Positions 16,528 to 33,185 of a DNA stretch of 64,000 nt are shown here, piece by piece. Numbering within the stretch: the stretch's first letter is position 1; every line of letters begins with the position of its first letter. This DNA is from an uncultured Actinomycetes bacterium. Its GTDB lineage: Bacteria > Actinomycetota > Thermoleophilia > UBA2241. The notes under the pieces were generated by a model. The model was not told the DNA's origin and did no database searches. It worked only from the letters and a program-made list of their open reading frames with translations. Location of the stretch: assembly GCA_963767005.1 (NCBI GenBank), contig CAVYCN010000008.1, forward strand, positions 96,001 through 160,000. The letters are read 5' to 3'. The position numbers and the translations under genes were made by a program.

Positions 16528-17316
16528 TCAGGCCGGCGCCGCCGTTGGGCCGGTGTCGTCGTCGGCGGCGTGCCGCCGCTCGACCGCGCGGCGGCGCTCC
16601 ATCAGGCGCGCGATCACGACCGACAGCTCGTAGAGGATCTCGAGCGGGATGAACATGGCGATGAACGAGAAGGCATCCTGGCTGGGCGTCGCGACCATCG
16701 CGATGATGGCGTTGATCACGATGGCGTAGCGCCAGTGCTTGCGCAGGAACGAGGTCTTGACCACGCCGATGCGCACCGCCGCGATGATTGCGACGGGCAT
16801 CTCGAACACCGCCCCGAACGCGACCAGGAACCAGGCGATGAACGAGAAGTAGTCGTTCGCTCGCAGCTGCGTGTTGAAGAACTGGCCGTTGAAGCCGAGC
16901 AGCCAGCCCAGGCCCTTCGGCAGCACGATCAGGTAGCCGAACACGACGCCGAACATGAACAGGCCGAAGCAGACGGCCGCGACGAGGATGAGCACGCGCC
17001 GGCTCGCCGGGGTGAAGGCGGGTCCGATGAAGGCCCAGAACTCGTAGATCACGATCGGCGACGCCAGGATCACGCCGACGTACGCCCACACCTTGAGGCT
17101 GACCATGAAGGGCTCGGCCGGGCTGAACGTGGTGATCTTGTGGGGCACGTTCCCGGGGAGCCCCGCGAGCGGGTGGCGCATGAGGGCGAAGACCTGGTCG
17201 TTCAGCACGGCGGCGATGACGATGCCGACGCCGAGCGCGATGGCCGCGATGATGATGCGGCGGCGCAGCTCGTCGAGGTGATCGACGAGGGTGACGCGTT
17301 CGTCGAACCCGACCAT
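16528..17316 (-). CDS. tatC: twin-arginine translocase subunit TatC
   Basis: TLVDHLDELRRRI, SPAEPF, YEFWAFIGPAF, FEMPV, ATPSQD and LYELSV motifs. Confidence 0.93.
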   Translation of the reverse strand: MVGFDERVTLVDHLDELRRRIIIAAIALGVGIVIAAVLNDQVFALMRHPLAGLPGNVPHKITTFSPAEPFMVSLKVWAYVGVILASPIVIYEFWAFIGPAFTPASRRVLILVAAVCFGLFMFGVVFGYLIVLPKGLGWLLGFNGQFFNTQLRANDYFSFIAWFLVAFGAVFEMPVAIIAAVRIGVVKTSFLRKHWRYAIVINAIIAMVATPSQDAFSFIAMFIPLEILYELSVVIARLMERRRAVERRHAADDDTGPTAAPA

Positions 17317-17324
17317 GCCGAGCG

Positions 17325-17963
17325 TCAGTCGGGGGTCGTCGAGGCCGCTGCCGGGGCGCTGCTGCGGCGCAGCTTGCCGAACGTCTCGACGCCCGCCGGG
17401 TCGCCCTGGGCGGCGTCGGGGCCGGCCGCCAGGGCGGCGGACGGCGCGGGAGCGTCGGGTGCGCTCGGCGCCTGCGGGGCGCTGGGCGCGGCGATTGCGG
17501 CGTTGTCGACCCCGCTCTCGTCGGCGACCGCGGCGGGCCCGGTCGCCGCGGCGTCGACCGGCACCTCGGGTGCGGCGGGAGCGGCCTCGTCGGTCGGGAC
17601 CTGGGGTGTGTCCGGAGCGTCCTCGTCGGCCATGCCGGCCGGCTCGGTGAGGGCGGCGCCGGTCACGGCACCGGTCACGGCGGCCGTCACCGCGGCGGGC
17701 GCGATGCTGTCGGGCGCCGTGGGGGTGGCGGCGGGCGCGGCGGGCTGGGTGTCGCCGGTGAGGCTGAAGCTCGATTTGAGGTCGTTGACGGAGCCGGCGA
17801 TGTCGTCGACGCCGATCTGCGAGCGGATCTCGCTCGTGGCCGTCCTGAACTCGCGGATCGCCTGACCAAGCTGCTTGCCCATCTGAGGCAGGCGCTTGGG
17901 GCCGAACACCACGAGGGCGATGACCAGCACCATGAGGAGCTCGGGGAGACCGATGTTGGGCAT
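17325..17963 (-). CDS. twin-arginine translocase TatA/TatB-family subunit with long acidic Ala/Pro tail
   Basis: MPNIGLPELLMVLVIALVVFGPKRLPQMGKQLGQAIREFR; GAGGTGG RBS; directly upstream of tatC. Confidence 0.88.
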   Translation of the reverse strand: MPNIGLPELLMVLVIALVVFGPKRLPQMGKQLGQAIREFRTATSEIRSQIGVDDIAGSVNDLKSSFSLTGDTQPAAPAATPTAPDSIAPAAVTAAVTGAVTGAALTEPAGMADEDAPDTPQVPTDEAAPAAPEVPVDAAATGPAAVADESGVDNAAIAAPSAPQAPSAPDAPAPSAALAAGPDAAQGDPAGVETFGKLRRSSAPAAASTTPD

Positions 17964-18192
17964 GCGAGGACCACCTCTGTGGAATGACAGGCCCGCTTGG
18001 ACCTCGTACAAAGAGTACGCACACCACATCGGAGCGTCAATCGTGGCCCCGGCGCGTCGGCGACGGGGGACGCCGGTAGCCGGGGGCGCCTTGTCCAGCA
18101 TGTCCAACAGGGCCCCGCCAGGCGGGCCGAGTCGTCAGAGAATCACCTGCAAATCGGGGAGAACACGGTCCGACGGAAAGGCCGTCGGCCGG

Positions 18193-18282: not shown

Positions 18283-18651
18283 ATGACGAGCGCATTCCTC
18301 ACGAGCTGGGCTTACGTCGCCGTGTTCATCGTGGCCGGCGCGGTCATGGTCGTCGGCATCCTGCTGATGTCGCGGCTCGTGTACCCGATCCACCCGTCGC
18401 CCGAGAAGTACTCCACGTACGAGTGCGGCATCGAGCCGGTCGGCGACTCGTGGCACCCCTTCGCCGTGCGCTACTACATCTTCGCCCTGCTGTTCCTGGT
18501 CTTCGACGTCGAGGCCATCTTCCTCTTCCCGTGGACGCTCTCGTTCCGGCGCTTCGGCACGACGGGCTTCGTCGAGGTCCTGCTGTTCATCGGCGTGCTC
18601 GCGGTCGGCCTGCTCTACGCCTGGCGCAAGGGAGCGCTCGAATGGGCGTGA
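18283..18651 (+). CDS. nuoA: NADH-quinone oxidoreductase subunit A
   Basis: [40 protein letters not shown]. Confidence 0.95.
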
Positions 18652-19352
18652 TCGACGACGCCGGCCTGCGCGGCTTCGTCGACCGGTTCCAGTACCCGAA
18701 CATCAGCCAGTTCGAGCGGCCCAACGTCATCACGACGACCGTCGACTTCATCTTCAGCTGGGCGCGCTCGCACTCGGTGTTCCCGTTCACCTACGGCCTC
18801 GCCTGCTGCGCGATCGAGATGCTCTCCTCGGGCTTCGCCCGCTTCGACGTCGCGCGGTACGGCATGGAGGTCTTCCGGCCCACGCCGCGCCAGTGCGACC
18901 TGATGATCGTGGCCGGCACCGTCAACGAGAAGATGGCGCCGGTGCTCAAGCGCCTCTACGAGCAGATGTCCGAGCCCAAGTGGGTGATCGCCATGGGCGC
19001 CTGCGCGACCAGCGGCGGCCCGTTCTACGACGGCTACAACGTCGTGAACGGCGTCGACAAGGTCGTGCCGGTCGACGTCTACATCCCGGGCTGCCCGCCG
19101 CGCCCCGAGGCGCTCTTCCAGGGTCTGCTCGAGCTGCAGAAGAAGATCCAGGCGATGCGCATCGTGCCGCCGGTGACCGGCGACGTCGCGGCGAGCGAGC
19201 GCGACGAGCGCGCCGCCGCGCAGCAGGCGGTCGCCGACCTCGACGGCAGCGCCGCCGAGGTCGGCGCGGCGCAGGTCGCCGCGCCCGACACCGAGCCGGC
19301 CGTGGCGTCCGCCGCGACCGCCCGAGCCGCCCGCGACGGGGACGAGGGCTAA
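18642..19352 (+). CDS. nuoB: NADH-quinone oxidoreductase subunit B
   Basis: [44 protein letters not shown]; acidic Ala-rich tail. Confidence 0.95.
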
Positions 19353-19354
19353 CC

Positions 19355-19849
19355 GTGCTGCCCGCCATCGGTGCGGCCGGCCTGTCCGTCGCCGACGTCG
19401 CCGCGCGTCTGACCGAGGCCTTCGGCGACGACCTCGCCGGGCCGCGCGTCCAGGGCGCCGGCACGGTCGTCGCCGGCGTCGACCGCGCCCGCCTGCACGA
19501 CGTCGCCGAGCGGCTGCGCGCGCTCGAGGGTCTCGCCTACGAGTCGTGCAACTTCATCGCCGCGGTCGACCACGGCGACCGCTACGAGACGGTCTACCAC
19601 CTCTACTCCTACGCCTCGAACACGTACCTCGAGCTGCACGTCGACGTGCCGCGCGGCAAGCCGGCGGTGGCCACCGTGTCCGACGTCTGGCCGGCGGCCG
19701 ACTGGCACGAGCGCGAGGCCTGGGACATGATGGGCATCCGCTTCGAGGGTCACCCCGACCTGCGCCGCATCCTGCTGGCCGACGGCTGGGTCGGCCACCC
19801 GCTGCGCAAGGACTACGTCGACTCGGTCGAGAACCACCCCCATGTCTGA
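19355..19849 (+). CDS. nuoC: NADH-quinone oxidoreductase subunit C
   Basis: ADWHEREAWDMMGIRFEGHPDLRRILL..WVGHPLRKDY; start GTG 19355 approximate. Confidence 0.93.
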   Translation: MLPAIGAAGLSVADVAARLTEAFGDDLAGPRVQGAGTVVAGVDRARLHDVAERLRALEGLAYESCNFIAAVDHGDRYETVYHLYSYASNTYLELHVDVPRGKPAVATVSDVWPAADWHEREAWDMMGIRFEGHPDLRRILLADGWVGHPLRKDYVDSVENHPHV

Positions 19850-21056
19850 CCAGTTCGCGACAGCCGTGCCCGACGAGGCCATGGCCCTGGCGCTGCGCCG
19901 TATCGCCGAGTCCGAGGCCGAGGGCCAGGGCAGCGACATGGCCGGCCTGGGCTTCAACCAGGTGGTCGTCAACATGGGGCCGCAGCACCCCTCGACCCAC
20001 GGTGTGCTGCGCCTGGTCGTCACGCTCGACGGCGAGCTCGTCAAGGACGTCATCCCCGTCGTCGGCTACCTGCACCGCAGCTTCGAGAAGATCGCCGAGA
20101 AGCGCACGTACTACCAGTACATCCCCTACCCGGCTCGCACCGAGTACCTGGCCGGCATCAACTGCGAGTGGGCCTACCTGCTCGCCGTCGAGCAGCTCGC
20201 CGGCATCACGCCCACGCGCCGCGCCGAGTTCGTCCGCGTGATCATGGCCGAGCTCAACCGCATCGCGAGCCACCAGGTGGGCGTCGGCACGTTCGTGGCC
20301 GACCTCGCGCCGCTCGGCACGGCGATGGTCTTCTACGCCTTCCGTCACCGCGAGCAGATCCTCGACCTGCTCGAGGCCGCGACCGGAGCGCGCATGATGT
20401 TCAACTACCTGCGCTTCGGCGGCGTGCGCGACGACCTGCCCGACGGCTGGATCGAGTCGTGCCGGGCGGCGATGCAGAAGGTGCCGGCCTGGTGCGACGA
20501 GTACGAGCGGCTCGTCAACGACAATGCCGTCTTCCTGCAGCGCTGCGTCGGCAAGGGCGTGATCACCCAGGACGACGTGGCCGACTACGCCATCACCGGC
20601 CCCAACGCGCGCGCCTCGGGCGTGGCCCACGACCTGCGCCGCACCCGGCCCTACTCGGTCTACCCCGAGCTCGACTTCGCGGTCTGCACGGCCGAGCACG
20701 GTGACGTGTACGACCGCTACCTGGTGCGGATCGACGAGATCCGCGAGTCGGCGAAGATCGTGCTGCAGTGCCTCGACATGCTGCCGGCCGGTCCCGTACG
20801 TCTGGGCACCCTCAGGCCGCCCTACGTCATCGCCCCGCCGCCGGGCGCCTGCTACGTCGGGCAAGAGAACCCGCGCGGCGAGTTCGGCACCTACGTCGTG
20901 AGCGACGGCTCGCGCTACCCGTACCGGCTCAAGTACCGCGACCCCTGTTTTGTGAACCTGCAGATCTTTCCCAAGCTGCTGCGCGGCAACAAGATCGCCG
21001 ACGCCGTCGCCATCTCGGGGAGCATGGACATGGTGCTCGGAGGGATCGACCGCTGA
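19842..21056 (+). CDS. nuoD: NADH-quinone oxidoreductase subunit D
   Basis: NMGPQHPSTHGVLRL, GYLHRSFEK, ENPRGEFG, DMVLGGIDR; no Ni-binding CxxC pairs. Confidence 0.95.
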   Translation: MSDQFATAVPDEAMALALRRIAESEAEGQGSDMAGLGFNQVVVNMGPQHPSTHGVLRLVVTLDGELVKDVIPVVGYLHRSFEKIAEKRTYYQYIPYPARTEYLAGINCEWAYLLAVEQLAGITPTRRAEFVRVIMAELNRIASHQVGVGTFVADLAPLGTAMVFYAFRHREQILDLLEAATGARMMFNYLRFGGVRDDLPDGWIESCRAAMQKVPAWCDEYERLVNDNAVFLQRCVGKGVITQDDVADYAITGPNARASGVAHDLRRTRPYSVYPELDFAVCTAEHGDVYDRYLVRIDEIRESAKIVLQCLDMLPAGPVRLGTLRPPYVIAPPPGACYVGQENPRGEFGTYVVSDGSRYPYRLKYRDPCFVNLQIFPKLLRGNKIADAVAISGSMDMVLGGIDR

Positions 21057-22171
21057 TGGACATCTTCCTCGCCATCGTGCGGTGCGTCGTCGCGGTGCTG
21101 ATCGCCTACGGCATCGTGTTCGCCGCGGCGCTCGTCAACATCCTCTTCGAGCGCCGCGCGCTCGCCTTTCTGCAGGACCGCCTGGGCCCCAACCGGACCG
21201 GCTGGCAGGGCAGCCTGCAGAGCGTCGCCGACGCCTTCAAGATGATGGGCAAAGAGGACTTCGCCCCGAGCGCCGCCGACAAGGCGATGTTCACGCTGGC
21301 GCCGATCATGGTCATGATCGGCGCCGTCGCGATCCAGGTCGTCGTGCCCTACACGAGCGGCTGGACCGACCAGAACCTGAACGTCGGCCTCATCTACATC
21401 GTCGCCATCACGAGCTTCACCGTGCTTGCGATCCTGCTCGGCGGCTGGGCCTCCCACAACAAGTACTCGCTGGTCGGCGCGCTGCGCTCGGGCGCCCAGA
21501 TGATCTCGTACGAGGTGCCGATGATCCTCGCGCTGCTCGTCGTCGCCATGGGCGCGGGCTCGCTCAGCCTGAACACGGTGGTCGCGGTCCAGCGCCACTA
21601 CGAGTGGTTCGCGTTCACCATGCCGTTCACGTTCCTGCTCTTCTTCATCGCCTCGATCGCCGAGCTCAACCGCGGCCCCTTCGACCTGCCCGAGTCCGAG
21701 TCCGAGCTCGTCGCCGGCTACGGCACCGAGTACTCCGGCATGCGCTTCGGCATGTTCTTCCTGAACGAGTATGCCGGCATGACGATCATGTCGATGGTCA
21801 CGGTCACGCTGTTCCTGGGCGGCTGGCAGGGGCCGCTGGCCGGCGCGCTCGTCGTGCACGGGGTGGCGATCGTGCCGATCCTCTGGTTCCTGATCAAGGT
21901 GTACGCGCTCGTGTTCGCGCTCATCTGGATCCGCCTGTCGGTGCCCCGCCTGCAGGTCGACCAGCTCATGGGCTTCGCCTGGAAGGTCCTCATCCCACTC
22001 GGCCTGGTCAACGTGCTCGCCACGGCGGCCGTCGCGCTCTGGGCGCCCCACTGGAAGCTCGCCATGGCGGCCTATAGCTGGATCGCCTTGATCGCCTTCG
22101 TCGGCCTGTTCGACGCGGTGCTGCGCTGGCGCCTGCGGCGCCAGCGTCGGCGCGTTACGGTGACCGCCTGA
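21056..22171 (+). CDS. nuoH: NADH-quinone oxidoreductase subunit H
   Basis: ERRALAFLQDRLGPNR, AQMISYEVP, AELNRGPFDLPESESELVAGYGTEYSG. Confidence 0.95.
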   Translation: MDIFLAIVRCVVAVLIAYGIVFAAALVNILFERRALAFLQDRLGPNRTGWQGSLQSVADAFKMMGKEDFAPSAADKAMFTLAPIMVMIGAVAIQVVVPYTSGWTDQNLNVGLIYIVAITSFTVLAILLGGWASHNKYSLVGALRSGAQMISYEVPMILALLVVAMGAGSLSLNTVVAVQRHYEWFAFTMPFTFLLFFIASIAELNRGPFDLPESESELVAGYGTEYSGMRFGMFFLNEYAGMTIMSMVTVTLFLGGWQGPLAGALVVHGVAIVPILWFLIKVYALVFALIWIRLSVPRLQVDQLMGFAWKVLIPLGLVNVLATAAVALWAPHWKLAMAAYSWIALIAFVGLFDAVLRWRLRRQRRRVTVTA

Positions 22172-22932
22172 TGCTCGGCATCCTCAAGGCCATGGGCACC
22201 ACGCTGGCGCACCTGCCGCAGCGCAAGATCACGGTGCAGTACCCCGAGGAGCGCGAGCAGCTGCCGGAGCGCAGCCGTGGCCTGTTCCAGGTGGTGACCG
22301 ACCCCGCCACCGGCGAGCCTGCCTGCCGCGCCTGCACGCTGTGCGAGACCAACTGCCCGGTGCAGGTCATCCGCGTGAACTACACCTCGACCCACGCCCT
22401 GCCGGCGGTCGACGACGCGCGCATCACGCGCGTGCGGGCAGCGGCGCAGCCCGTGCCCGACACGACGCTGATCGCGCCGGTGATCGACCAGTACCGCAAG
22501 ACCGGCCAGGGCCTCATGGGCGTCCTGCAGCACACCCAGGAGATCTACGGCTACCTGCCGCGCCTCGCCCTGCAGGAGATCGCGGTCGAGACCGGCGTCT
22601 CGCTGTCGCAGCTCTACGGCGTGGCGAGCTTCTACGACCAGTTCCGCCTGAACCCCGTGGGCCGCTTCGTCGTGACCGTCTGTCACGGCACCGCCTGCCA
22701 CGTCGCCGGCGCGCCGCTCATCACCGAGGCCTTCTCCGAGGAACTCGGCCTCGAGGTCGGCAAGACCAGCAAGGACCGCCTCTTCACCCTGCAGACCGTG
22801 AGCTGCGTCGGCGCCTGCGCCCTGGCCCCGGTAGTGCGCATCGGCGACGATGAGACTCACGGCCGCATGACGCCCGACAAGGCGCGCAGCCTGGTCGGCG
22901 AGCTGCGCCACCGCGCCGAGGTCGACCGATGA
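22171..22932 (+). CDS. fusion: N-terminal half of NuoI (one CxxCxxCxxxCP) + NuoE/HydC-like [2Fe-2S] subunit
   Basis: Residues 1-~70: ITVQYPEEREQLPERSRG...CRACTLCETNCP (NuoI N-half). Then QEIYGYLP, GVASFYDQF, CHGTACH and CVGACALAP (NuoE). Confidence 0.88.
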   Translation: MLGILKAMGTTLAHLPQRKITVQYPEEREQLPERSRGLFQVVTDPATGEPACRACTLCETNCPVQVIRVNYTSTHALPAVDDARITRVRAAAQPVPDTTLIAPVIDQYRKTGQGLMGVLQHTQEIYGYLPRLALQEIAVETGVSLSQLYGVASFYDQFRLNPVGRFVVTVCHGTACHVAGAPLITEAFSEELGLEVGKTSKDRLFTLQTVSCVGACALAPVVRIGDDETHGRMTPDKARSLVGELRHRAEVDR

Positions 22933-24845
22933 GCGTGGCGATCGATCGCGGCAGCCTGATCGAAGCCGCCCTCGCCCGCGCGCTGCACCCCGAGAGCATC
23001 ATCGCCCACGAGGGCGCCCGCGAGGTGCGCATCTGCGCCGGCACGGCCTGCCACGCGTCCGGCCGTCCGGCCGTCACCGCCGCCTTCCGCGAGCAGCTCG
23101 CCGACAAGGGCCTGGCCGACACGGTGCGGGTCGTCGAGACCGGCTGCCACGGCTTCTGCGAGCAGGGCCCGATCGTGCTGCTGCAGCCCCAGGGCCTGTT
23201 CTACTCGCGGGTGCGGGCGACCGATGTGGCCGGCATCATCACGGCCAGCATCGAGGCCGACGGCGTCTACGAGAAGCGCCTCTACAAGCACCCGGCGACC
23301 GGCGAGCCGGTGCCCCACGAGGAGGACATCCCGTTCTACGCCGGGCAGCGCCGTCTCGTGCTCAACTTGAACGGCCGCATCGACCCCTACTCGATCGACG
23401 ACTACCTCGCCCAGGACGGCTATCGCGCGCTGGCCGACGTGCTCGTGCGCGACGACCCGGTCGGCGTGATCGACGACATCGAGAACTCGGGGTTGCGCGG
23501 CCGCGGCGGCGCCGGCTTTCCGGCCGGCCGCAAGTGGCGCTCCTGCCGGGCCAACCCCGGCGACTGCAAGTACGTCATCTGCAACGGTGACGAGGGCGAC
23601 CCCGGCGCCTTCATGGACCGCTCGGTGCTCGAGGGCAACCCGCACTCGGTGGTCGAGGGCATGATCATCGCCGCCTATGCGATCGGCTCGGGCGTGGCGC
23701 CGGTGCACGGCTTCGTGTACGTGCGCGCCGAGTATCCGTTCGCCGTGCAGCGCCTCGACGCCGCCCTCGCCCAGGCGCGCGAGCGCGGCCTGCTCGGCGC
23801 GAACATCCTCGACTCGGGCTTCGACTTCGACATCCGCATCAACCAGGGCGCCGGCGCCTTCGTCTGCGGCGAGTCCACGGCGCTCACCGCGAGCATCGAG
23901 GGCCAGCGCGGCATGCCGCGCGGCAAGCACATCCGCACCGTCGCCCACGGCCTCTACGGCCAGCCGACCAACCTGAACAACGTCGAGACGTTCGCCAACG
24001 TGCCCTGGATCGTGTCGCACGGCGTCGACGCCTACCGCGCGATGGGCACCGAGACCTCGAAGGGCACCAAGATCTTCTCGCTCACCGGCAAGCTCCAGAA
24101 CGGCGGCCTCGTCGAGGTGCCGATGGGCGCCACGCTGCGCGAGGTCATCTTCGACGTGGGCGGCGGCATGCTGCCCGGCCGCGAGTTCAAGGCCGTGCAG
24201 CTCGGCGGCCCCTCGGGCGGCTGCCTGCCGGCCGACCTGCTCGACTCGCCCGTCGACTTCGAGAGCCTGCTGGCCGCCGGCTCGATGATGGGCTCGGGCG
24301 GCATGGTCGTGGTCGACGACTCGACCTGCATGGTCGACTTCGCCAAGTTCTTCCTGCAGTTCACCCAGGACGAGAGCTGCGGCAAGTGCGTGCCCTGCCG
24401 CCTGGGCACCAAGCGCATGCTCGAGACGCTCGTGCGCATCACCGAGGGCGAGGGCCGGCCCGACGACATCGAGCTCCTCGAGGAGCTGTCCGAGTACATC
24501 ATCGACGGCTCGCTGTGCGCCCTCGGCGGCAGCGCCCCCAACCCGGTGCTCAGCACGCTGCGCTACTTCCGCGACGAGTACGTCGCCCACGTCGAGGACC
24601 GGTGCTGCCCCGCCGGTCGCTGCAAGGCGCTCATCACCTACTACATCAGCGGCGACTGCACCGGCTGCGGGCTCTGCGCCAAGAAGTGCCCGACCCAGGC
24701 GATCACCGGCGAGCGCAAGCAGATGCACGTGATCGACACCGACCTCTGCATCAAGTGCGACACCTGCCGCCAGGTTTGCAACTTCAACGCCGTCCGGGTG
24801 CACTCGGGCTCGCAGGCCGGCGCGGCCGACGGAGGTGCGGCGTGA
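22929..24845 (+). CDS. nuoF: NuoF/HydB (BfuB)-type FMN/NADH-binding subunit with N-terminal [2Fe-2S] and C-terminal 2x[4Fe-4S] domains
   Basis: CAGTAC..TGCHGFCEQGP; SGLRGRGGAGFP; NGDEGDPGAFMDRS; GAGAFVCGE; GGPSGG; ESCGKCVPCR; HVEDRCCPAGRC; CTGCGLCAKKCP and CIKCDTCRQVC. Confidence 0.92.
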   Translation: MSVAIDRGSLIEAALARALHPESIIAHEGAREVRICAGTACHASGRPAVTAAFREQLADKGLADTVRVVETGCHGFCEQGPIVLLQPQGLFYSRVRATDVAGIITASIEADGVYEKRLYKHPATGEPVPHEEDIPFYAGQRRLVLNLNGRIDPYSIDDYLAQDGYRALADVLVRDDPVGVIDDIENSGLRGRGGAGFPAGRKWRSCRANPGDCKYVICNGDEGDPGAFMDRSVLEGNPHSVVEGMIIAAYAIGSGVAPVHGFVYVRAEYPFAVQRLDAALAQARERGLLGANILDSGFDFDIRINQGAGAFVCGESTALTASIEGQRGMPRGKHIRTVAHGLYGQPTNLNNVETFANVPWIVSHGVDAYRAMGTETSKGTKIFSLTGKLQNGGLVEVPMGATLREVIFDVGGGMLPGREFKAVQLGGPSGGCLPADLLDSPVDFESLLAAGSMMGSGGMVVVDDSTCMVDFAKFFLQFTQDESCGKCVPCRLGTKRMLETLVRITEGEGRPDDIELLEELSEYIIDGSLCALGGSAPNPVLSTLRYFRDEYVAHVEDRCCPAGRCKALITYYISGDCTGCGLCAKKCPTQAITGERKQMHVIDTDLCIKCDTCRQVCNFNAVRVHSGSQAGAADGGAA

Positions 24846-27286
24846 GCGCGCAGCCTCGCGACGCCGCTAAGGCGGCCGCGCCGGCCTCCCGCCCGGTGGC
24901 CGCCGTGCCGCAGATGACGCTCACGGTCGACGGGCACGAGGTGACGTGCGACCGCGGCGAGACCATCCTGCAGGCCGCCGAGCGGGCCGGGGTGCGCATC
25001 CCGACGCTGTGCTACGAGTCGCGTCTGCCGGCCTCGGCCGCCTGCCGCCTGTGCATGGTCGAGGTCGAGGGCTGGGGCAAGCCGGTGTCGAGCTGCTCGA
25101 CCTACGCCGCCGACGGCATCGTCGTGCACACCGACACCGAGAAGGTGCGCAAGATGCGGCGGCTCTATCTCGAGCTGCTGCTGTCCGACCACAGCTCGTT
25201 CTGCACGCCGCCCTGCGCCGACGCCTGCCCGACGGGGATCAAGATCCCGCAGTTCCTCGACGCCGTCGCACGGGGCGACTACGCCGCCGGCGTGCGCAAG
25301 CTGCGCGAGGACCTGCCGTTCCCGGCGATCCTCGGGCGCGTCTGCCCGCGGCCCTGCGAGGAGCCCTGCCGACGCCGTCTCGTCGACGAGCCCATCACGA
25401 TCTGCTCGCTGCACCGCTTCATGGCCGACCAGTGCCTCGACGACGAGCAGACCGGCGAGCTGCTCCTGCCCTACGAGCCGCGGCCCGACAGCGGCAAGCG
25501 TGTCGCCGTCGTTGGCGCCGGGCCGGCCGGCCTGGCCTGCGCGTTCTACGCCCGCCTCGACGGCCACCAGGTGACGATCTTCGAGGCCGAGTCGCGGCCC
25601 GGCGGCATGCTGCGCTACGGCATCCCCAGCTTCCGCCTGCCGCGCGAGGTGCTCGACAAGGAGCTCAACGTGCTCTGGCGCCTGGGCGTCGAGCTCGAGT
25701 GCGGCAAGCGCCTCGGCGCCGACCTGCGGCTCGACGACCTGACGGCGTCCTACGACGCCGTGTTCCTCGGCTTGGGCGCGCTGCACACCCCGGCGCTCGC
25801 CGTCGCCGGCGCCGAAGCGGCCGGCGTGACCGACGCGCTCGAGCTGCTGGCCGGCCTCGAGCGCGGCGACGACGTGACGGTCGGCGGCACGGTGGCCGTC
25901 GTCGGCGACGGCTTCGCCGCCGCCGAGGCCTGCCGCGTGGCGCGCCGCAAGGGCGCGACCGACGTCACCTGGCTCGCGCCGGGCGCGCGGGCCGACATGG
26001 CGACGCCGGCGGCCGAGATCGCCGCGGCACTCGACGAGGGCGTGCGGCTCGAAGAGGCCGTGGCGCCGATCGCCCTGCAGACCGGCGCCGGCGGCGCGCC
26101 GACCGGCATCGAGCTGCGTCGCGACGGCGGCGCCACGTTCGTGCTGGCCTGCGACCAGGTCGTGAACGCCGGCGCCCACGTGCCGCAACTCGACGGCACA
26201 AGCGAAGCGCAAGGCGTGGGCCGCACGGCGGCCGGCACCGTCCGCGTGAACGACGACACCCTGCAGACCGACGATCCGCGCATCTTCGCCGGCGGCGACG
26301 CCGTGCTGGGCGCGCGCACGGCGGTCGAGGCGGTCGCCCAGGGCAAGCGCGCCGCCTGGAGCATCGACGCGTTCCTGCGCGGCCACGACATGGCGGCCGT
26401 CGCGCGCGAGCTCGCCGAGGTGCGGGCGACGGCCTTCCCGGCCGCGCTCGCGGCGCGCAAGCGGCTCGACCCGGCCGTCGCCCGCCTGGCGGACGTCAAG
26501 CCGGTGTTCATCGACATGACGGTCGACGTCTCGCACCCGGCGCCGCGGCCGCGCATGCCCGAGCTGCCGGCGGCCGAGCGCGTGACCGGCTTCGCCGAGG
26601 TCGAGCTCGGCCTGACCGAGGAGCAGGCGCGCGAGGGCGCGGCCCTGTGCCTCGACTGCCACTGCCCGGCCAACGGCGAGTGCGAGCTGCAGAGCCTCGG
26701 CATCGAGTACGAAGTCTTCGAGAACCGCTTCCACGGGCAGGCGACCCACGACTACCCGGCCGACCTGCGCCACGACTTCATCATGCGCGAGCCCAACCGC
26801 TGCATCATGTGCCTGCGCTGCGTGCGCGTCTGCCGCATGGAGGTCGGGGCGAGCTGCTACGATGCCATGGGGCGCGGCTGGGACACGATCGTCTCGACGC
26901 CCGACAACCTGCCGCTGCAGACGGTCGGCTGCATCTCGTGCGGCAAGTGCGCCGAGACCTGCCCGACCGGCTCCATCGAGATCGACCGGCGCGTGCTGCG
27001 CAGCTACGATTTAGACGAGAGCCGCTGCATCTTCTGCGGCGAGTGCGTCGAGGTGTGTCCCTACGACGCGCTCGAGCAGACCGCCTTCTTCGAGCTCGCC
27101 GGCTACAGCCGCACGAAGCTCGCCGGCGAGTCGCTGTTCGTGCGCGTCCCGCAGAAGACCGACGGGCCGCGCCCCATCGTGGCCGACGTCGAGCCCCATG
27201 TGCGCGACGCGGTCGAGGGCAGAGGCTGGCAGTGGGCGCCGCTCAAGGGCGACGGCGACCTCGACGAGATCGAGCGTGACCTCTGA
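24842..27286 (+). CDS. fusion: NuoG-like Fe-S domains with inserted GltD/NfnB-like FAD oxidoreductase + C-terminal half of NuoI
   Basis: IPTLC..ACRLCMVE..SC ([2Fe-2S]); DH..CTPPCADACP, GRVCPRPCEEPCRR, GAGPAG, GGMLRYGIP, FAGGD (GltD); CLDCHC..CELQ; CIMCLRCVRVC; CISCGKCAETCP; then YDLDESRCIFCGECVEVCPYDALEQTAFFELAGYSR (NuoI C-half). Confidence 0.88.
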   Translation: MSAQPRDAAKAAAPASRPVAAVPQMTLTVDGHEVTCDRGETILQAAERAGVRIPTLCYESRLPASAACRLCMVEVEGWGKPVSSCSTYAADGIVVHTDTEKVRKMRRLYLELLLSDHSSFCTPPCADACPTGIKIPQFLDAVARGDYAAGVRKLREDLPFPAILGRVCPRPCEEPCRRRLVDEPITICSLHRFMADQCLDDEQTGELLLPYEPRPDSGKRVAVVGAGPAGLACAFYARLDGHQVTIFEAESRPGGMLRYGIPSFRLPREVLDKELNVLWRLGVELECGKRLGADLRLDDLTASYDAVFLGLGALHTPALAVAGAEAAGVTDALELLAGLERGDDVTVGGTVAVVGDGFAAAEACRVARRKGATDVTWLAPGARADMATPAAEIAAALDEGVRLEEAVAPIALQTGAGGAPTGIELRRDGGATFVLACDQVVNAGAHVPQLDGTSEAQGVGRTAAGTVRVNDDTLQTDDPRIFAGGDAVLGARTAVEAVAQGKRAAWSIDAFLRGHDMAAVARELAEVRATAFPAALAARKRLDPAVARLADVKPVFIDMTVDVSHPAPRPRMPELPAAERVTGFAEVELGLTEEQAREGAALCLDCHCPANGECELQSLGIEYEVFENRFHGQATHDYPADLRHDFIMREPNRCIMCLRCVRVCRMEVGASCYDAMGRGWDTIVSTPDNLPLQTVGCISCGKCAETCPTGSIEIDRRVLRSYDLDESRCIFCGECVEVCPYDALEQTAFFELAGYSRTKLAGESLFVRVPQKTDGPRPIVADVEPHVRDAVEGRGWQWAPLKGDGDLDEIERDL

Positions 27287-27789
27287 TGCCGCAGGGCGAC
27301 TTCCATCCCATCCTGTTCGTGATCGTCGCCGTCTGGGTGCTGGGCTGCGGCATCGCCGTGGTCGCCCTGCGCAACATCGTGCACTCGGCGATGGCGATGG
27401 TGGCCTGCTTCCTGGGCGTGGCGGCGGCCTACGTGCTGCTCGACGCCGGCCTGCTCGCCGTCATCCAGATCCTGATCTACGTGGGCGCCATCTCGGTCGT
27501 CGTGCTGTTCGCCATCATGCTGACCGAGCAGCAGCGCACCGGTCGCGGCTTCTACTTCAACCGCCAGTCGATCGTCGCCCTGCCGCTTGCCGTCGCGACC
27601 TTCGTCGTGCTCACCGTCGTGCTCGTGACCTCGAAGATGCCGCTCAGCGGCAGCCACGCGCACAATGTCTCGCTGACCGGCATCGCAAACGGCCTCTTCA
27701 GCGCCTACGTCTTTCCGTTCGAGCTCGTCTCGATCGTCCTGCTGTCGGCCATGGTCGGCGCCATCGTGCTGGCCCGCAAGGAGGACTAG
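27286..27789 (+). CDS. nuoJ: NADH-quinone oxidoreductase subunit J
   Basis: NIVHSA, QILIYVGAISVVVLFAIML, PFELVSIVLLSAMVGAIVL. Confidence 0.93.
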   Translation: MPQGDFHPILFVIVAVWVLGCGIAVVALRNIVHSAMAMVACFLGVAAAYVLLDAGLLAVIQILIYVGAISVVVLFAIMLTEQQRTGRGFYFNRQSIVALPLAVATFVVLTVVLVTSKMPLSGSHAHNVSLTGIANGLFSAYVFPFELVSIVLLSAMVGAIVLARKED

Positions 27790-27854
27790 CCGTGCCACGC
27801 AGTCACACCTGGCTGAGCCACAACAACGCAAGCCCATTGGGGGACTAGCAGGCC

Positions 27855-28163
27855 GTGAGCCCCGTCGACTGGTATCTGACCCTCGCCTCCGGCCTCTTCT
27901 GCATCGGCGCCTACGGCGTGCTCGCGCGGCGCAACGTCGTGCTCATCGTGATGAGCCTCGAGCTCATGCTGAACGCCGTGAACCTCGCCCTCGCCGCCTT
28001 CGCCGACTTCATGCCGGGGGCCGCCGGTCGCGGCACCTTCTTCGTGCTGTTCATCATCACCCTGGCGGCCGCCGAAGTGACGGTCGGCCTGGCGATCATC
28101 GTCGCCAACTACCGCAACCGCCGGTCGGTGCAGGCCGACGAGTTCAGCGAGATGAAGGGCTAG
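27855..28163 (+). CDS. nuoK: NADH-quinone oxidoreductase subunit K
   Basis: RRNVVLIVMSLELMLNAVNL, AAAEVTVGLAII. Confidence 0.95.
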   Translation: MSPVDWYLTLASGLFCIGAYGVLARRNVVLIVMSLELMLNAVNLALAAFADFMPGAAGRGTFFVLFIITLAAAEVTVGLAIIVANYRNRRSVQADEFSEMKG

Positions 28164-28173
28164 GGGGCCCGCC

Positions 28174-30069
28174 GTGCACGTCGCCATCGCCCTGATCCCG
28201 GCCCTGCCGCTCGCCGGCTTCGTGATCACGCTGCTGCTCGGCCGCAACGCGCTGGCCCGGCGGCCCGAGGTCGCGTCGCTCGCCGCCGTCACCGGCTCGT
28301 GGGTGCTCAGCATGGTCGTCGTGGCGCACGTCTTCGGCCACCACACGCAGACGATCGACGTGCACCTGTTCAGCTGGGTCTCGGCCGGCTCGTTTCAGGT
28401 GCAGTGGGGCTACTACGTCGATGCGCTCGCCGCCGTCATGCTCATCGTGGTCAGCACGATCGGCATGCTCGTGCACTACTACTCGATCGGCTACATGCGC
28501 GGCGACGGTGGCTACTACCGATTCTTCGCCTACCTCAACCTCTTCATGTTCGCCATGTTCACCCTCGTGCTGGCCGACAACTACCTGCTCATGTTCCTGG
28601 GCTGGGAGGGCGTGGGCCTCTGCTCGTACCTGCTGATCTCGTTCTGGTTCCACAAGAAGAGCGCCTCGCAGGCCGGCAAGAAGGCCTTCCTCGTCAACCG
28701 CGTGGGCGACTGGGGCTTCACCCTGGGCGTGTTCCTCATGTTCGTGACGTTCGGCACCCTGCAGTTCTCGCAGGTCTTCGCCCACGCGGCCCACGTGAGC
28801 CCGGGTCTCGTCACCTGGATCAGCCTGCTGCTCTTCGTCGGCGCGGTCGGCAAGAGCGCCCAGTTCCCGCTGCACGTCTGGCTGCCCGACGCGATGGAGG
28901 GCCCGACCCCGGTCAGCGCCCTGATCCACGCCGCCACGATGGTGAACGCCGGCGTCTACATGATCGCCCGCAGCTACCCGCTCGTGAGCCACTCGCACAC
29001 CGCCATGCTCGTCGTCATGGGGGTGGGCTGCTTCACGGCGATCTACGCCGCCTGTATCGCGCTCACCCAGAACGACATCAAGAAGGTGATCGCCTACTCC
29101 ACGATCTCGTCGCTCGGCTTCATGTTCATGGCGCTCGGCGCGGGCGCCTGGGTGGCAGGCATCTTCTACCTGTTCGCCCACGGCTTCTTCAAGGGCCTGC
29201 TCTTCCTGGGCTCGGGCTCGGTGATCCACGCCATGTCGGGCGAGCAGGACATGCGTCACATGGGCGGCCTGCGCAAGAAGCTGCCGCTCACCTTCTGGAC
29301 GATGATGGTCGGCGCCCTCGCCAACGTCGGTCTGTTCCCGTTCGCCGGCTTCTGGGCCAAGGACGAGATCCTGGGCGGCGCCTTCTCGGGCCACTACTAC
29401 GTGGTCTGGCTGGTGGGTCTGGTCACCGCCTTCGTGACGGCGGTGTTCATGTTCCGCCTCATGTTCCTGACCTTCTGGGGCGAGAACCGCGCCGACGCCG
29501 AGGTGCAGCATCACATCCACGAGTCGTCGGCCGTGATGACCGTGCCGCTCGTCATCCTTGCCGTGCCGGCCGCGGTGCTCGGCCTGGTGATCGGCCTGCC
29601 GCCCGGCGGCGGCTGGCTGCACACCTTCCTGCACCCGGTCTTCTTCAGAGTCGAGAGCGAGCACTTCGCCTGGGCCGGCACCGGTGGCGCCCTCATGCTC
29701 CTGTCGCTCGTCGTGGTCGTGCTCGGCATCGGCACGTCGTGGCAGGCCTACCTGCGGCGCCCCGAGCTGCCCGCGCGAGTCGCCGCTCGCGTGCCCTGGG
29801 CCTACCAGGCGTCGCTGCACAAGTTCTATATGGACGAGATCTACGACGCCGGTGTGGTGCGTCCGGTCATGGGCTTCGCCTCGTGGCTGTGGACGTTCGT
29901 CGACGTCAAGGTGGTCGACGGCGCCGTCAACGGCATCGCCGCCGTCTGGGCCGCCTTCGGGCGCGCCCTGCGGCCGCTGCAGACCGGCCGCGCCCAGAGC
30001 TACGCGTTCGGCGTCTTCGGCGGCCTGTTCGTGCTCGTCATCATCGTCCGCTACGTCTGGAGGGCCTGA
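28174..30069 (+). CDS. nuoL: NADH-quinone oxidoreductase subunit L
   Basis: GWEGVGLCSYLLI, KAFLVNRVGD, GKSAQFPLHVWLPDAMEGPTPVSALIHAATMV, DIKKVIAYST. Confidence 0.96.
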   Translation: MHVAIALIPALPLAGFVITLLLGRNALARRPEVASLAAVTGSWVLSMVVVAHVFGHHTQTIDVHLFSWVSAGSFQVQWGYYVDALAAVMLIVVSTIGMLVHYYSIGYMRGDGGYYRFFAYLNLFMFAMFTLVLADNYLLMFLGWEGVGLCSYLLISFWFHKKSASQAGKKAFLVNRVGDWGFTLGVFLMFVTFGTLQFSQVFAHAAHVSPGLVTWISLLLFVGAVGKSAQFPLHVWLPDAMEGPTPVSALIHAATMVNAGVYMIARSYPLVSHSHTAMLVVMGVGCFTAIYAACIALTQNDIKKVIAYSTISSLGFMFMALGAGAWVAGIFYLFAHGFFKGLLFLGSGSVIHAMSGEQDMRHMGGLRKKLPLTFWTMMVGALANVGLFPFAGFWAKDEILGGAFSGHYYVVWLVGLVTAFVTAVFMFRLMFLTFWGENRADAEVQHHIHESSAVMTVPLVILAVPAAVLGLVIGLPPGGGWLHTFLHPVFFRVESEHFAWAGTGGALMLLSLVVVVLGIGTSWQAYLRRPELPARVAARVPWAYQASLHKFYMDEIYDAGVVRPVMGFASWLWTFVDVKVVDGAVNGIAAVWAAFGRALRPLQTGRAQSYAFGVFGGLFVLVIIVRYVWRA

Positions 30070-30071
30070 CC

Positions 30072-31661
30072 GTGGGCTGGCATCAGCAGGCGGGCTTTCC
30101 CATCCTCTCGGTCATCACGTACCTGCCGCTCGTCGGCGTCGTGATCATCGCCCTGTTCGGCAGGGGCCGGCCGACCTTCTACAAGGTCGTCAGCCTGGTC
30201 GTCACGCTGGCCGCCTTCGCGCTGTCGATCGTGCTGCTGCTCCGCCTCCACGCGAACCGGCCCGGCATGCAGTTCGTCGAGAACGTCGTCTGGATCAAGC
30301 GCTTCAACATCCACTACGGCTTCGGCATCGACGGCATCTCGGCGCTGTTCATCTTCCTGACCACGCTGCTCGGCTTCATCGTGATCATCGCGAGCTGGCA
30401 CTACGTCAAGGACCGCGAGCGCGGCTTCTTCGCGACGCTGCTGCTCCTCCAGGTCGGCATGACCGGCGTGTTCTGCGCGACCGACATCTTCCTGTTCTAC
30501 GTGTTCTGGGAGGCCATGCTGATCCCGATGTTCTTCATCATCGGGATCTGGGGCGGTCCCCGGAAGATCTACGCCGCCGTCAAGTTCTTCCTGTTCACGC
30601 TGGTCGGCAGCGTGCTCATGCTGGTCGCCATCATCGCCCTGGTCTGGTACGCGCGCGGCAACTCGCCGGTCGGGCTGACGTTCGACATCCAGCAGCTCTC
30701 GCACCTGATCCTGCCCTACGACCTGCAGCTCTGGGCCTTCGCCGCCTTCTTCGTCGCCTTCGCCATCAAGGTGCCGATGTGGCCGCTCCACACCTGGCTG
30801 CCCGACGCCCACGTCGAGGCCCCGACGGCGGGCTCCGTGATCCTCGCCGGCGTCCTGCTGAAGATGGGCGGCTACGGCATGCTGCGCTTCTGCCTGCCGA
30901 TCTTCCCCGACGCCGCGGTCGCCTTCATCCCGCTCGTCGTCGCCCTGTCGATCGTGGCCATCATCTACGGCGCCCTGGTGTCGATGCAGCAGAAGGACTT
31001 GAAGAAGCTCGTCGCCTACTCGAGCGTCAGCCACATGGGCTTCGTCACGCTCGGCATCTTCGTGTCGGTGGCCGTGCTCGGCAACGCCCAGGGCATGGTG
31101 GGCGCGATCCTCGTCATGTTCAGCCACGGCCTGCTCACGGGCGCCCTGTTCCTGCTGGTCGGCTTCCTCTACGAGCGCACGCACACGCGTGAGATCGCCG
31201 CGATGGCCCGTCTGGCCACGCCGCTGCCGGTGCTGGCCGGCTTCTTCCTGTTCTTCACGCTCGGCTCGCTCGGCCTGCCCGGCCTGTCGGGCTTCGTGGG
31301 CGAGTTCCTGAGCCTGCTCGGCCTGTTCCACTACTCGCACTGGATGGCGGCCGTCGCCGCCCTCGGCGTGATCCTGGCGGCCTGCTACCTGCTCTGGATG
31401 TTCCAGCGCGTCATGTTCAACGACCGCGGCGACGAGGCGGTCAAGCCGGCCTTCGCCCTGTCCGACTTCGGTGCGCGCGAGATCGCGTCGCTGCTGCCGC
31501 TCGTCGTGCTCGCCGTGTGGGTGGGCGTCTACCCCAACACCTTCATCAATCTCGTCCACCTGCCGGTCCAGCAGATCGTCGATCGCGTCGTGCCGTCCCT
31601 CGCCCAGGCCCACGGCGGGACACTCGCCGACCTCGGTCGTTTCGCACGGGGGCTGCTCTAG
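30072..31661 (+). CDS. nuoM: NADH-quinone oxidoreductase subunit M
   Basis: FYVFWEAMLIPM, AIKVPMWPLHTWLPDAHVEAPT, KKLVAYSSVSHMG, LPGLSGFVGEF. Confidence 0.96.
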   Translation: MGWHQQAGFPILSVITYLPLVGVVIIALFGRGRPTFYKVVSLVVTLAAFALSIVLLLRLHANRPGMQFVENVVWIKRFNIHYGFGIDGISALFIFLTTLLGFIVIIASWHYVKDRERGFFATLLLLQVGMTGVFCATDIFLFYVFWEAMLIPMFFIIGIWGGPRKIYAAVKFFLFTLVGSVLMLVAIIALVWYARGNSPVGLTFDIQQLSHLILPYDLQLWAFAAFFVAFAIKVPMWPLHTWLPDAHVEAPTAGSVILAGVLLKMGGYGMLRFCLPIFPDAAVAFIPLVVALSIVAIIYGALVSMQQKDLKKLVAYSSVSHMGFVTLGIFVSVAVLGNAQGMVGAILVMFSHGLLTGALFLLVGFLYERTHTREIAAMARLATPLPVLAGFFLFFTLGSLGLPGLSGFVGEFLSLLGLFHYSHWMAAVAALGVILAACYLLWMFQRVMFNDRGDEAVKPAFALSDFGAREIASLLPLVVLAVWVGVYPNTFINLVHLPVQQIVDRVVPSLAQAHGGTLADLGRFARGLL

Positions 31662-33185
31662 ATGAACAACTCGGTCTTCATCGTGCTGCCCACCGTCGTC
31701 ATCCTCGCGACCGCGGTGGTCGTGCTGCTCGCCGACCTCGTCTTCGAGCGGCGCCCCAAGGTCCTCGGCTGGCTGTCCGCCGGCGGCCTCGTCGTGGCCG
31801 CCTCGGTGGCGATCGGCCAGTGGGCGACCTGGTCGGGTGGCGACGCGCTCTGGCGCGTCTTCACCGGCGGCCTCGGGTTCGGCGCCCGGCAGGGCAGATA
31901 CGGCTTCAACGGCATGGTCCGGCTCGACCAGTACGGGCTCTTCTTCACGGTGCTGTTCTGCGCGATCGGCGTGCTCACCGTCCTGCTGTCCGACGGCTAC
32001 CTTGCCCAGCATCGCATCAAGGCGGGCGAGTTCTACCTGCTGCTGCTGCTCGCCTTGAGCGGCATGGTCTGCATGGCGATCTCGACCGACCTCATCGCCC
32101 TGCTCGTGTCGTTCGAGCTCATGTCGTTGCCGAGCTACGTGCTGGCCGGCGTGCTGCGCCGCGACCGCAAGTCGGGCGAGGCGGCCATCAAGTACTTCGT
32201 GAACGGCGCCTTCGCGTCGGCCGTCCTCGCCTTCGGCCTCGCCCTCGTCTACGGCGCGACCGGGGCCACGGGCTACGGCTCCATCCAGCGCTCACTCGCC
32301 GCCGGCGACCCGCGCAACGCGATGCTGCTCGTCGCCCTCGTGCTGGTGGCGACCGGCTTCGGCTTCAAGATCGCAGCGGTGCCGTTCCACGGCTGGGCGC
32401 CCGACGTCTACGAAGGCGCCCCGACGCCGGTCACCGCCTTCATGTCGGTCGGCATCAAGGCCGGCGCCTTCGCCGGCTTCCTGCGTATCGTCGCTCTGGC
32501 GCTCATCCCGGCCTCGCAGGGCTGGTCCGACGTGCTGATCATCCTGGCCGTGCTGACCATGGTCGTCGGCAACGTGCTCGCCCTGCCGCAGCGCAACCTC
32601 AAGCGGCTGCTCGCCTACTCGAGCATCGCGCACGCCGGCTACCTGCTCCTCGGCCTGGTCGCCCTGGGCCGCAGCCACGACACGACCGGCGCCGGCGCGG
32701 TCCTGTTCTACCTGGCCGCCTACACGTTCATGAACCTCGGCGCGTTCGGCGTGCTCGTGCTCATCCGCAACCGCCGGGCCTTTGCCTACACGCTCGACGA
32801 GCTCGCCGGCATGGGTCGCAGCATGCCGCTCACCGCCTTCGCCATGACGCTCTTCATGCTGTCGCTGACCGGCATCCCGCCGCTCGCCGGCTTCTGGGGC
32901 AAGTTCTACCTGTTCACGGCCGTGATCGACGCGCACCTCACCTGGCTCGCGGTCGTCGCCGTCGTGATGAGCGCGGTGTCGGCGTTCTACTACCTGCGGA
33001 TCGTCTGGTACCTGTACTTCCGCGAGGCCGAGCCGGCCGCCGAGGAGCCCGAGCTGCTGGCCGCCGACGGCGGCATCGCCAGCGCGACGGCCGTCGCGGT
33101 GCTCGGCGTGCTCGCGGTGGGCGTGTACCCGTCGCCGGTCATCGCCGCGGCGCAGGGAGCCGTGCGCCTCATCTTCAAGGCCTGA
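31662..33185 (+). CDS. nuoN: NADH-quinone oxidoreductase subunit N
   Basis: EAAIKYF, FKIAAVPFHGWAPDVYEGAPTP, KRLLAYSSIAHAGY, GIPPLAGFWGK. Confidence 0.96.
   Translation: MNNSVFIVLPTVVILATAVVVLLADLVFERRPKVLGWLSAGGLVVAASVAIGQWATWSGGDALWRVFTGGLGFGARQGRYGFNGMVRLDQYGLFFTVLFCAIGVLTVLLSDGYLAQHRIKAGEFYLLLLLALSGMVCMAISTDLIALLVSFELMSLPSYVLAGVLRRDRKSGEAAIKYFVNGAFASAVLAFGLALVYGATGATGYGSIQRSLAAGDPRNAMLLVALVLVATGFGFKIAAVPFHGWAPDVYEGAPTPVTAFMSVGIKAGAFAGFLRIVALALIPASQGWSDVLIILAVLTMVVGNVLALPQRNLKRLLAYSSIAHAGYLLLGLVALGRSHDTTGAGAVLFYLAAYTFMNLGAFGVLVLIRNRRAFAYTLDELAGMGRSMPLTAFAMTLFMLSLTGIPPLAGFWGKFYLFTAVIDAHLTWLAVVAVVMSAVSAFYYLRIVWYLYFREAEPAAEEPELLAADGGIASATAVAVLGVLAVGVYPSPVIAAAQGAVRLIFKA

Follow-up and report, generated by a model that had tools for sequence, protein, structure and literature searches.

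A window of 64,000 nucleotides (G000:C8:96001-160000) holds, at its positions 18283-33185 on the + strand, a complex I operon in which the gene of NuoI is split in two. Thirteen genes lie on this one strand in the order nuoA-B-C-D-H-X-Y-Z-J-K-L-M-N, and NuoI is divided between X and Z. This order and the coordinates were proposed in the original prediction, made from the letters of the window, and were borne out by hidden Markov model (HMM) scans and the sequence. The four coupled junctions that it listed are also present (TGATG at 22169, ATGA at 22929, GTGA at 24842 and TGATG at 27284), and the frames of X, Y and Z are all open and translationally coupled.

Gene X (22171-22932; 253 amino acids, aa) fuses the N-terminal half of NuoI to a NuoE/BfuC domain, with the NuoI profile TIGR01971 at residues 8-74 and PF01257 at residues 104-245. 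Its NuoI half (22192-22392) consists of a YP..RSRG loop and a single ferredoxin motif, CxxCxxCxxxCP (C52/55/58/62), called the X motif here. Gene Y (22929-24845; 638 aa) encodes a NuoF of the BfuB/HydB type according to its motifs and its top PDB matches, 7t2r_B, 8a6t_B and 9bov_B.

Gene Z (24842-27286; 814 aa) has three ferredoxin motifs, M1, M2 and M3, at residues 654, 697 and 729. By HMM, PDB and alignment, it is an NfnA/StnC-type protein that ends after M2 and is fused there to the C-terminal half of NuoI (26981-27124), made of M3 (C729/732/735/739) and a FELA tail. Both fusions had been predicted, a NuoI N-terminus with one motif ahead of the NuoE domain in X and a NuoI C-half as the third motif of Z, and both are seen.

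The two halves complement each other. When run on the whole genome in six frames, TIGR01971 splits as anticipated, with its profile positions 2-66 on X and 68-115 on Z. For residues 1-75 of X, all 33 of the 33 PDB matches are NuoI, TYKY or NdhI. The halves together cover 17-82 and 91-134 of the Paracoccus-type chain 8qby_I, and 6-70 and 86-130 of 2fug_9. The Z half matches the second half of NuoI/NdhI chains, and polyferredoxins rank above them by summed repeats.

Position-specific scoring matrices (PSSMs) were built from the motif windows of 22 intact NuoI and 20 BfuA/HydA-type sequences, with Cys and Pro masked. Among the rows scored, which include duplicate genomes and kin, the X motif fits best as NuoI motif 1 in 100/100, M2 as BfuA in 78/78 and M3 as NuoI motif 2 in 75/78. 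The complementary profile matches, the PSSM assignment and the NuoI-type PDB matches make the half-domains NuoI-specific, as had been claimed, and a generic ferredoxin identity is rejected. All eight Cys of the N6a and N6b clusters are present in their NuoI context on X and Z, while a NuoI of one polypeptide with two [4Fe-4S] motifs is absent from the split operon.

The cut falls in the inter-motif loop, whose length is variable in intact NuoI (motif spacing of 39-49 in 22 sequences). The junction itself is invariant, the M2-M3 spacing being 32 in 239/239 Z clusters, and exactly one ferredoxin motif and a [2Fe-2S] motif occur in 119 of the 120 X homologue clusters. In f1, the own family of this genome, mean pairwise identity is 0.81 for the NuoI N-half vs 0.70 for NuoE, and 0.84 for the C-half vs 0.69-0.89 across the rest of Z, so the halves rank among the better-conserved regions. 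Even in sequences whose NuoE is stripped of its Cys, the X motif has all four of its own, and the YP..RG loop specific to NuoI is there too.

Structure prediction returned low scores for this region. A complex prediction of Z 600-790 with X 1-80 scored 0.24 against a mark of 0.32. The C-terminal ferredoxin region had a predicted local distance difference test score (pLDDT) below 50 in AlphaFold2 of full Z, and the mean pLDDT was 39 for Z 600-778 with 70 sequences.

The remaining ten genes make up the complex I core, A, B, C, D, H, J, K, L, M and N, all within the one operon. Upstream of X are nuoA (18283-18651; PF00507, NF005839), nuoB (18642-19352; TIGR01957 above cut-off) with the tandem Cys motif GLACCAIEM for the N2 cluster, nuoC (19355-19849), nuoD (19842-21056; NF004739 above cut-off) and nuoH (21056-22171; PF00146, NF004741). 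NuoC, with a probable GTG start, is identified by its position and by tblastn, whose matches lie between B and D in intact operons, the HMM scans having used the wrong frame with no match.

Downstream of Z follow nuoJ (27286-27789; PF00499), nuoK (27855-28163; PF00420), nuoL (28174-30069; TIGR01974), nuoM (30072-31661; TIGR01972) and nuoN (31662-33185; TIGR01770), the last three above cut-off. No sigma-70 promoter match was found, and terminator-like matches were near chance frequency. Divergent from nuoA, on the minus strand at 16528-18107 of the window, are tatA- and tatC-like genes, named by eye.

The module inserted between nuoH and nuoJ has the hallmarks of the Bfu family. BfuB is defined by B1-B5 with the B2 His and BfuC by C1 (Schut 2022; PMC9304861); Y carries the B1, B3/B4 and B5 cluster motifs and the B2 His554, and X carries C1. 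The residues of bifurcating-type beta subunits, A/E232-x-M234, F367 and GGPSG (Losey 2020; PMC7311640), are all intact in Y as AFM (PGAFMD), F (GAGAFVCGE) and GGPSG.

Z comprises a [2Fe-2S] domain, a GltD flavin domain and M1-M3. A GltD-like flavin adenine dinucleotide (FAD) domain inserted in BfuA is a feature of Nfn-Bfu/StnABC, and the best matches of Z by sequence and fold are NfnA/StnC (9bov, 8oh5, 9n5u). A plain HydCBA or FeFe-hydrogenase origin is rejected by these top matches and by the lack of an H-cluster domain. The FAD motif of Z is intact. Its NADPH-binding Rossmann motifs (25904-25999) are decayed, with GDGFAA for GGGFTA and WLAPG for LYRR, and the downstream GRRRP loop is also gone.

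This loss is found in the window and three close genomes. The NADPH motifs are intact in 23 of the 30 unique f1 loci, two of the seven misses being one rearranged and one unreadable locus. They are also intact in 4/4 loci of f6, a second Thermoleophilia family, in 16/16 of one Chloroflexota class (that of genome G613), in 0/21 of a paralogue linked to pyruvate oxidoreductase (Por), and in 91/107 full-length clusters overall. In f6 and the Chloroflexota class, NuoE lacks its cluster Cys and NuoF lacks B3-B5, while the NADPH site is kept. Judged by these motifs, the module of this genome is an NADH/ferredoxin core with all bifurcation marks and a decayed NADPH site, and that of f6 and Chloroflexota is the reverse.

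The split form recurs widely, as a search of genomes for the same fusions showed. The X N-half was matched in 50 of 55 other f1 genomes (E <1e-30), and the 20/20 f1 loci fetched have the same order as far as their contigs extend, two with frameshifts. In f6, 23/24 genomes have the N-half match inside an open frame of 458-797 codons, and at the seven loci read, a remnant of NuoE links NuoI-N to NuoF, with Z coming next on contigs long enough to include it. In the Chloroflexota class, X was matched in 81 of 121 genomes at 1e-25, a count that includes the unpublished G896 and G932, used for no other result; 15 of 16 loci fetched have the full order and the remaining one is a lone X copy.

Among the matches listed, in part by a contig scan weighted towards Thermoleophilia patterns, the closest X and Z homologues carry Thermoleophilia source labels, and others are named Chloroflexota and Ca. 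Limnocylindrales. A 251-aa fusion of the X type on an unassigned contig (P0123) is about 40% identical to X, keeps its [2Fe-2S] Cys and may represent another lineage. Searching with P0123 at 1e-30 in 250 other Actinomycetota genomes, no full-length fusion was found outside Thermoleophilia. The same search in 300 Chloroflexota genomes at 1e-32 returned G613 alone, a cut-off that missed many members found later, so absence elsewhere is not implied. An Atlas search with the Z C-terminus returned only generic ferredoxins, below 0.9.

Some copies stand apart. The lone X copy lies outside any nuo operon (L227:4730-5500, genome G898), and the same genome has a full operon (L237). One Chloroflexota subgroup has 1.7-3.6 kb of unrelated DNA between Z and nuoJ (L208:11990-14980, L223-L225, L238). 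A 3.8-kb contig in a bin titled Deltaproteobacteria (L104) reads D-H-X-Y with 59-80% identity to the window and is possibly misbinned.

That the split is a chimera of assembly has hardly any probability left. In its favour, the best share of words sampled from the stretch in public sequencing runs was 0.22 and none reached half; no RNA run was listed. The contigs of these runs are mostly short pieces of relatives, and individual pieces reach over the junction inside X and over Y/Z, M2/M3 and Z/J, none spanning the region. Against it, identical junctions occur in the 20/20 f1, seven f6 and 15/16 Chloroflexota loci, and this sharing by independent genomes led us to reject the artefact, which the original prediction had named as its own hazard.

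The prediction also had no intact nuoI in the operon, and saw a danger to itself in an intact copy elsewhere that served this complex. The split operon has none, and the genome does have one. A second nuo operon of 14 genes lies on the same contig outside the window (L002/L003, G000:C8:38287-60704, minus strand), with an intact nuoI, its own nuoEFG and a short, non-Bfu NuoF. It adjoins cytochrome oxidase genes, its NuoD falls in a distant clade, and a gene resembling cytochrome c oxidase subunit I, named by eye, sits between its nuoA and nuoB.

This nuoI belongs to a complete operon of its own, and an intact nuoI is missing from many genomes with the split form. Among 40 f1 genomes of at least 90% completeness, 22 have an intact NuoI, and the X half is present in every one of the 18 that do not; no intact NuoI was found in the five Chloroflexota and five f6 genomes tested. 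In one split complex I (G011, L043:7855-12127), both halves are 85-86% identical to those of the window while NuoF is 34% identical. There NuoF has no flavin motifs and a ferredoxin pair replaces the NADPH domain of GltD. The NuoI halves persist where the head decays, in G011, f6 and Chloroflexota alike.

As to the origin, Ca. Aquicultor has a free-standing E-F-NfnA operon that is collinear with Z as far as M2, beyond which an FdhF-like domain follows. In a tree of the region common to Z and NfnA (49 rows), the 35 Z of the split type form one clade, with a Shimodaira-Hasegawa-like approximate likelihood ratio test (SH-aLRT) support of 97, sister to the Aquicultor NfnA. In the NuoD tree (40 rows), 19 split complexes fall in a broad clade with intact 11-subunit complexes and those with GltD in cis. 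Monophyly of the split-complex NuoD is neither shown nor rejected (approximately unbiased test, p-AU 0.25).

The complementary NuoI-specific halves, the invariant junction spacing, the one Z clade and the NuoD placement argue for an insertion into nuoI of an 11-subunit-type complex. From these we infer, as the simplest reading, that one operon of the NfnABC type was inserted into nuoI once and later spread between two phyla. The original prediction had a soluble HydCBA-like operon inserted into nuoI of a headless complex I. Its insertion into the 11-subunit type stands, and the donor is revised to the NfnABC/StnABC type with GltD in Z. The donor operon, the insertion site and the derived states can all still be found, and together they would document almost directly how a head was added to an 11-subunit complex I.

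Our main reading is that NuoI is split between two proteins of an Nfn/Stn-type (Bfu) module and that its halves likely rejoin on the quinone module, rebuild N6a/N6b and pass electrons to menaquinone and the proton pump, NADH and reduced ferredoxin being the most likely sources in this genome. We put its probability at about 0.72. In a ferredoxin fold of the 2x[4Fe-4S] type, each cluster, N6a or N6b, takes three Cys of one motif and one of the other. By this fold, the X motif and M3 would pair in trans to form N6a/N6b, and M1 and M2 would keep their BfuA pairing.

Electrons would pass from flavin mononucleotide (FMN) through B1, A1, A2, A4, N6a, N6b and N2 to menaquinone. Because the NuoI C-half is fused directly after M2, the exit probably lies on the A2-A4 branch, which would be a dead end in soluble StnC, whose side branch is described as non-functional for electron transfer (PMC10482914). 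In this genome, the motifs predict NADH and reduced ferredoxin as donors and a confurcating core that is kept; NADPH is the likely donor in relatives whose GltD site is intact. The lineages may have specialised after one insertion. The Chloroflexota class and f6, with the NADPH site kept and NuoE/F decayed, would be NADPH:quinone types, and most of f1 would keep both inlets.

Several points weigh against this reading. The substrates and the direction are read from motifs. The second, intact nuo operon and the decayed NADPH site mean that the window copy could be relaxing. The position of StnC Lys170 (K170/K165, ligand of the FAD-proximal cluster) is His191 in 113/113 aligned Z, and this Lys is stated to be conserved in all NfnABC (PMC12018979). 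The M2-M3 spacing of 32 also suits a 2x[4Fe-4S] ferredoxin in cis, the B3-B4 spacing in Y being 30. Finally, all the trees are quick SH-aLRT runs with few outgroups.

The spacing bears on the main structural alternative, the same complex wired otherwise, with M2 and M3 of Z pairing in cis as a NuoI-like ferredoxin and the X motif pairing with M1 or just docking the head. Invariant spacing of 32 is typical of cis ferredoxins, and TIGR01971 can align over M2 and M3 together (profile 44-115). Such wiring would, however, leave the M1 cluster without the fourth ligand expected from the fold, M2 and its flanks score as BfuA in every row and the M1-M2 loop of NfnA is retained. As the X motif also keeps its four Cys and YP..RG loop where the NuoE Cys are lost, we consider the cis pairing improbable. 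Similarly improbable is that the split complex works mainly in reverse, proton motive force and menaquinol reducing ferredoxin and NAD(P)+ as a substitute for Rnf in an anaerobe. RnfD was not found in this genome, which has many Bfu modules and ferredoxin-type enzymes, and the separate NADH-type complex I is the one next to the cytochrome oxidase genes. Yet the step from menaquinol to ferredoxin runs steeply uphill, about -74 vs -500 mV (Table 1 of PMC9304861), and many genomes yielded no complex I other than the split form.

The module might instead be an ordinary, non-bifurcating NADH inlet here, or be decaying, with the intact second complex I doing the respiratory work. The loss of NADPH motifs in the window and its three close genomes, the heavily decayed G011 head and the intact 14-gene operon would all suit this. 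Nevertheless, the X, Y and Z frames are open and coupled, the bifurcation marks of BfuB/C are all intact, and the Y of the window groups with a Por-linked BfuB that also works without an NADPH site. We give this reading a slim chance, and the trans-rebuilt NuoI fed by a confurcating core remains the preferred one.

Complex I with a BfuABC head has been predicted before. Nuo-Bfu is a predicted complex I of 14 subunits for NADH and ferredoxin:menaquinone confurcation, with a type-3 BfuA and a BfuB of clades 38/39, in Deferribacteres, Proteobacteria, Planctomycetes and Nitrospirae (Schut et al. 2022, PMC9304861). The split operon resembles it in having the membrane arm and quinone module of complex I, a BfuB/C core replacing NuoEFG and BfuABC genes in the middle of the nuo cluster. 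It differs in that the head is inside nuoI, NuoI is two fusion halves with no separate NuoI among the 13 genes, and BfuA is of the Nfn type with a GltD domain, with an exit likely via A4.

With NfnABC/StnABC (PDB 9bov, 8oh5, 9n5u), it shares the X-Y-Z order and domains, Z being collinear with NfnA/StnC up to M2. Those complexes are soluble (PMC10482914, PMC12018979), and Z departs from NfnA/StnC in further ways: it is without the FdhF-like domain at the C-terminus, a His replaces the Lys cluster ligand, and its end is the NuoI C-half. The intact NADPH Rossmann motifs of Nfn-Bfu/StnABC are also missing in this genome. The 11-subunit 'headless' complex I has the gene order nuoABCDHIJKLMN. Its loci, such as L276-L278 and L282-L285, share the flank gene order with the split operon and its NuoD groups there, but their NuoI is one chain and the electron donor is external.

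GltD flavoproteins have reached the nuoI slot of complex I in another way too. Operons of the mbx-like type have a gltD-related protein in place of NuoI (Degli Esposti 2015, PMC4758237), and single-chain NuoI-GltD proteins of 512-647 aa, with both motifs in cis, occur in 5/20 other loci. Unlike the split form, these fusions are one polypeptide with both NuoI motifs C-terminal, have no NuoE/F/G parts and fall on a separate branch of the GltD tree. The five loci are from other Actinomycetota (L274:8935-10854, L275:8000-9943, L281:11975-13513, L286:4181-6103, L288:8042-9964). Their GltD is inserted behind the N-terminal YP..RG loop and ahead of the two ferredoxin motifs, and the fusion is patchy within one family, L276 and L278 being without it.

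NuoI is, to our knowledge, universally a single-chain core subunit that carries the wire to the quinone site. In the literature searched, with most subscription papers and figures outside its scope, we found no description of a split NuoI, consistent with the novelty suggested at the outset. 'NuoI' occurs 0 times in the main text of Schut 2022 (PMC9304861), and NuoI is unmentioned in the consulted text of Spero 2015. This is a conserved and apparently undescribed variant of complex I that would work like Nuo-Bfu and falls outside it by its NuoI and BfuA features.

A conserved natural split would mean that two polypeptides can together build the wire to the quinone site and that electrons can join it by a new route. 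It also offers candidates, open to testing, for a complex I that confurcates electrons, a type predicted in 2022 and uncharacterised in that paper (PMC9304861), and for an NADPH-driven one. Annotation pipelines call these genes NuoE and formate dehydrogenase, so that genomes with the split form alone would be misread.

The same module is found once more in this genome, joined to Por. Contig C16 (L001:11738-19864) reads porC-porD-porA-X'-Y'-Z'::porB, where Z' is in frame with PorB and the Bfu module has the NuoI-derived split ferredoxin halves and a decayed NADPH site. The full order was seen in 14 of 20 loci fetched, one of them from family f4, the rest being cut or unrelated. NuoI-type motifs are kept in X' (29/29 rows) and Z' (20/23 rows), and the YP loop of X' is lost. 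The predicted Por-Bfu (PMC9304861) likewise joins a Bfu module to porCDAB; unlike it, this paralogue has Z' fused to PorB and is linked by the NuoI-derived split ferredoxin.

The Por Z' clade is sister to the f1 complex I Z (SH-aLRT 87), which makes complex I the likely source of the copy and Por its recipient. The Y of the window groups with the Por Y' (98), apart from the Y of two genomes of the same genus, which suggests later exchange between the copies. With odds a little better than even, the split NuoI, rebuilt in trans, serves as a transferable connector by which a bifurcating module with three inlets (NADH, ferredoxin, NADPH) is firmly wired to varied catalytic partners. It would have arisen once in complex I, and in many genomes of the two phyla no other complex I was found. 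One lineage would have turned it into a pump driven by NADPH and another into a confurcating pump for NADH and ferredoxin, and a later copy would have wired the same module to pyruvate oxidoreductase.

The BfuB cores of the complex I and Por copies intermingle in the tree, and some f1 members group with a stand-alone module on contig C3. One f4 genome (G027; L056, L177, L282) has the Por-linked split module and an intact 11-gene complex I, a pattern suggesting that the Por operon was transferred or that the split complex was lost.

In the genome of the window at large, MqnA for menaquinone is present and there are two loci of NiFe hydrogenase large subunits; CdhC/acetyl-CoA synthase was not found in it. 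Further Bfu modules of the NuoE/F(/G) type lie at L004:6656-9147 and L005:7175-9680 and on G000:C1 and C19. One of these extra modules adjoins genes resembling formate-tetrahydrofolate ligase and folD, both named by eye.

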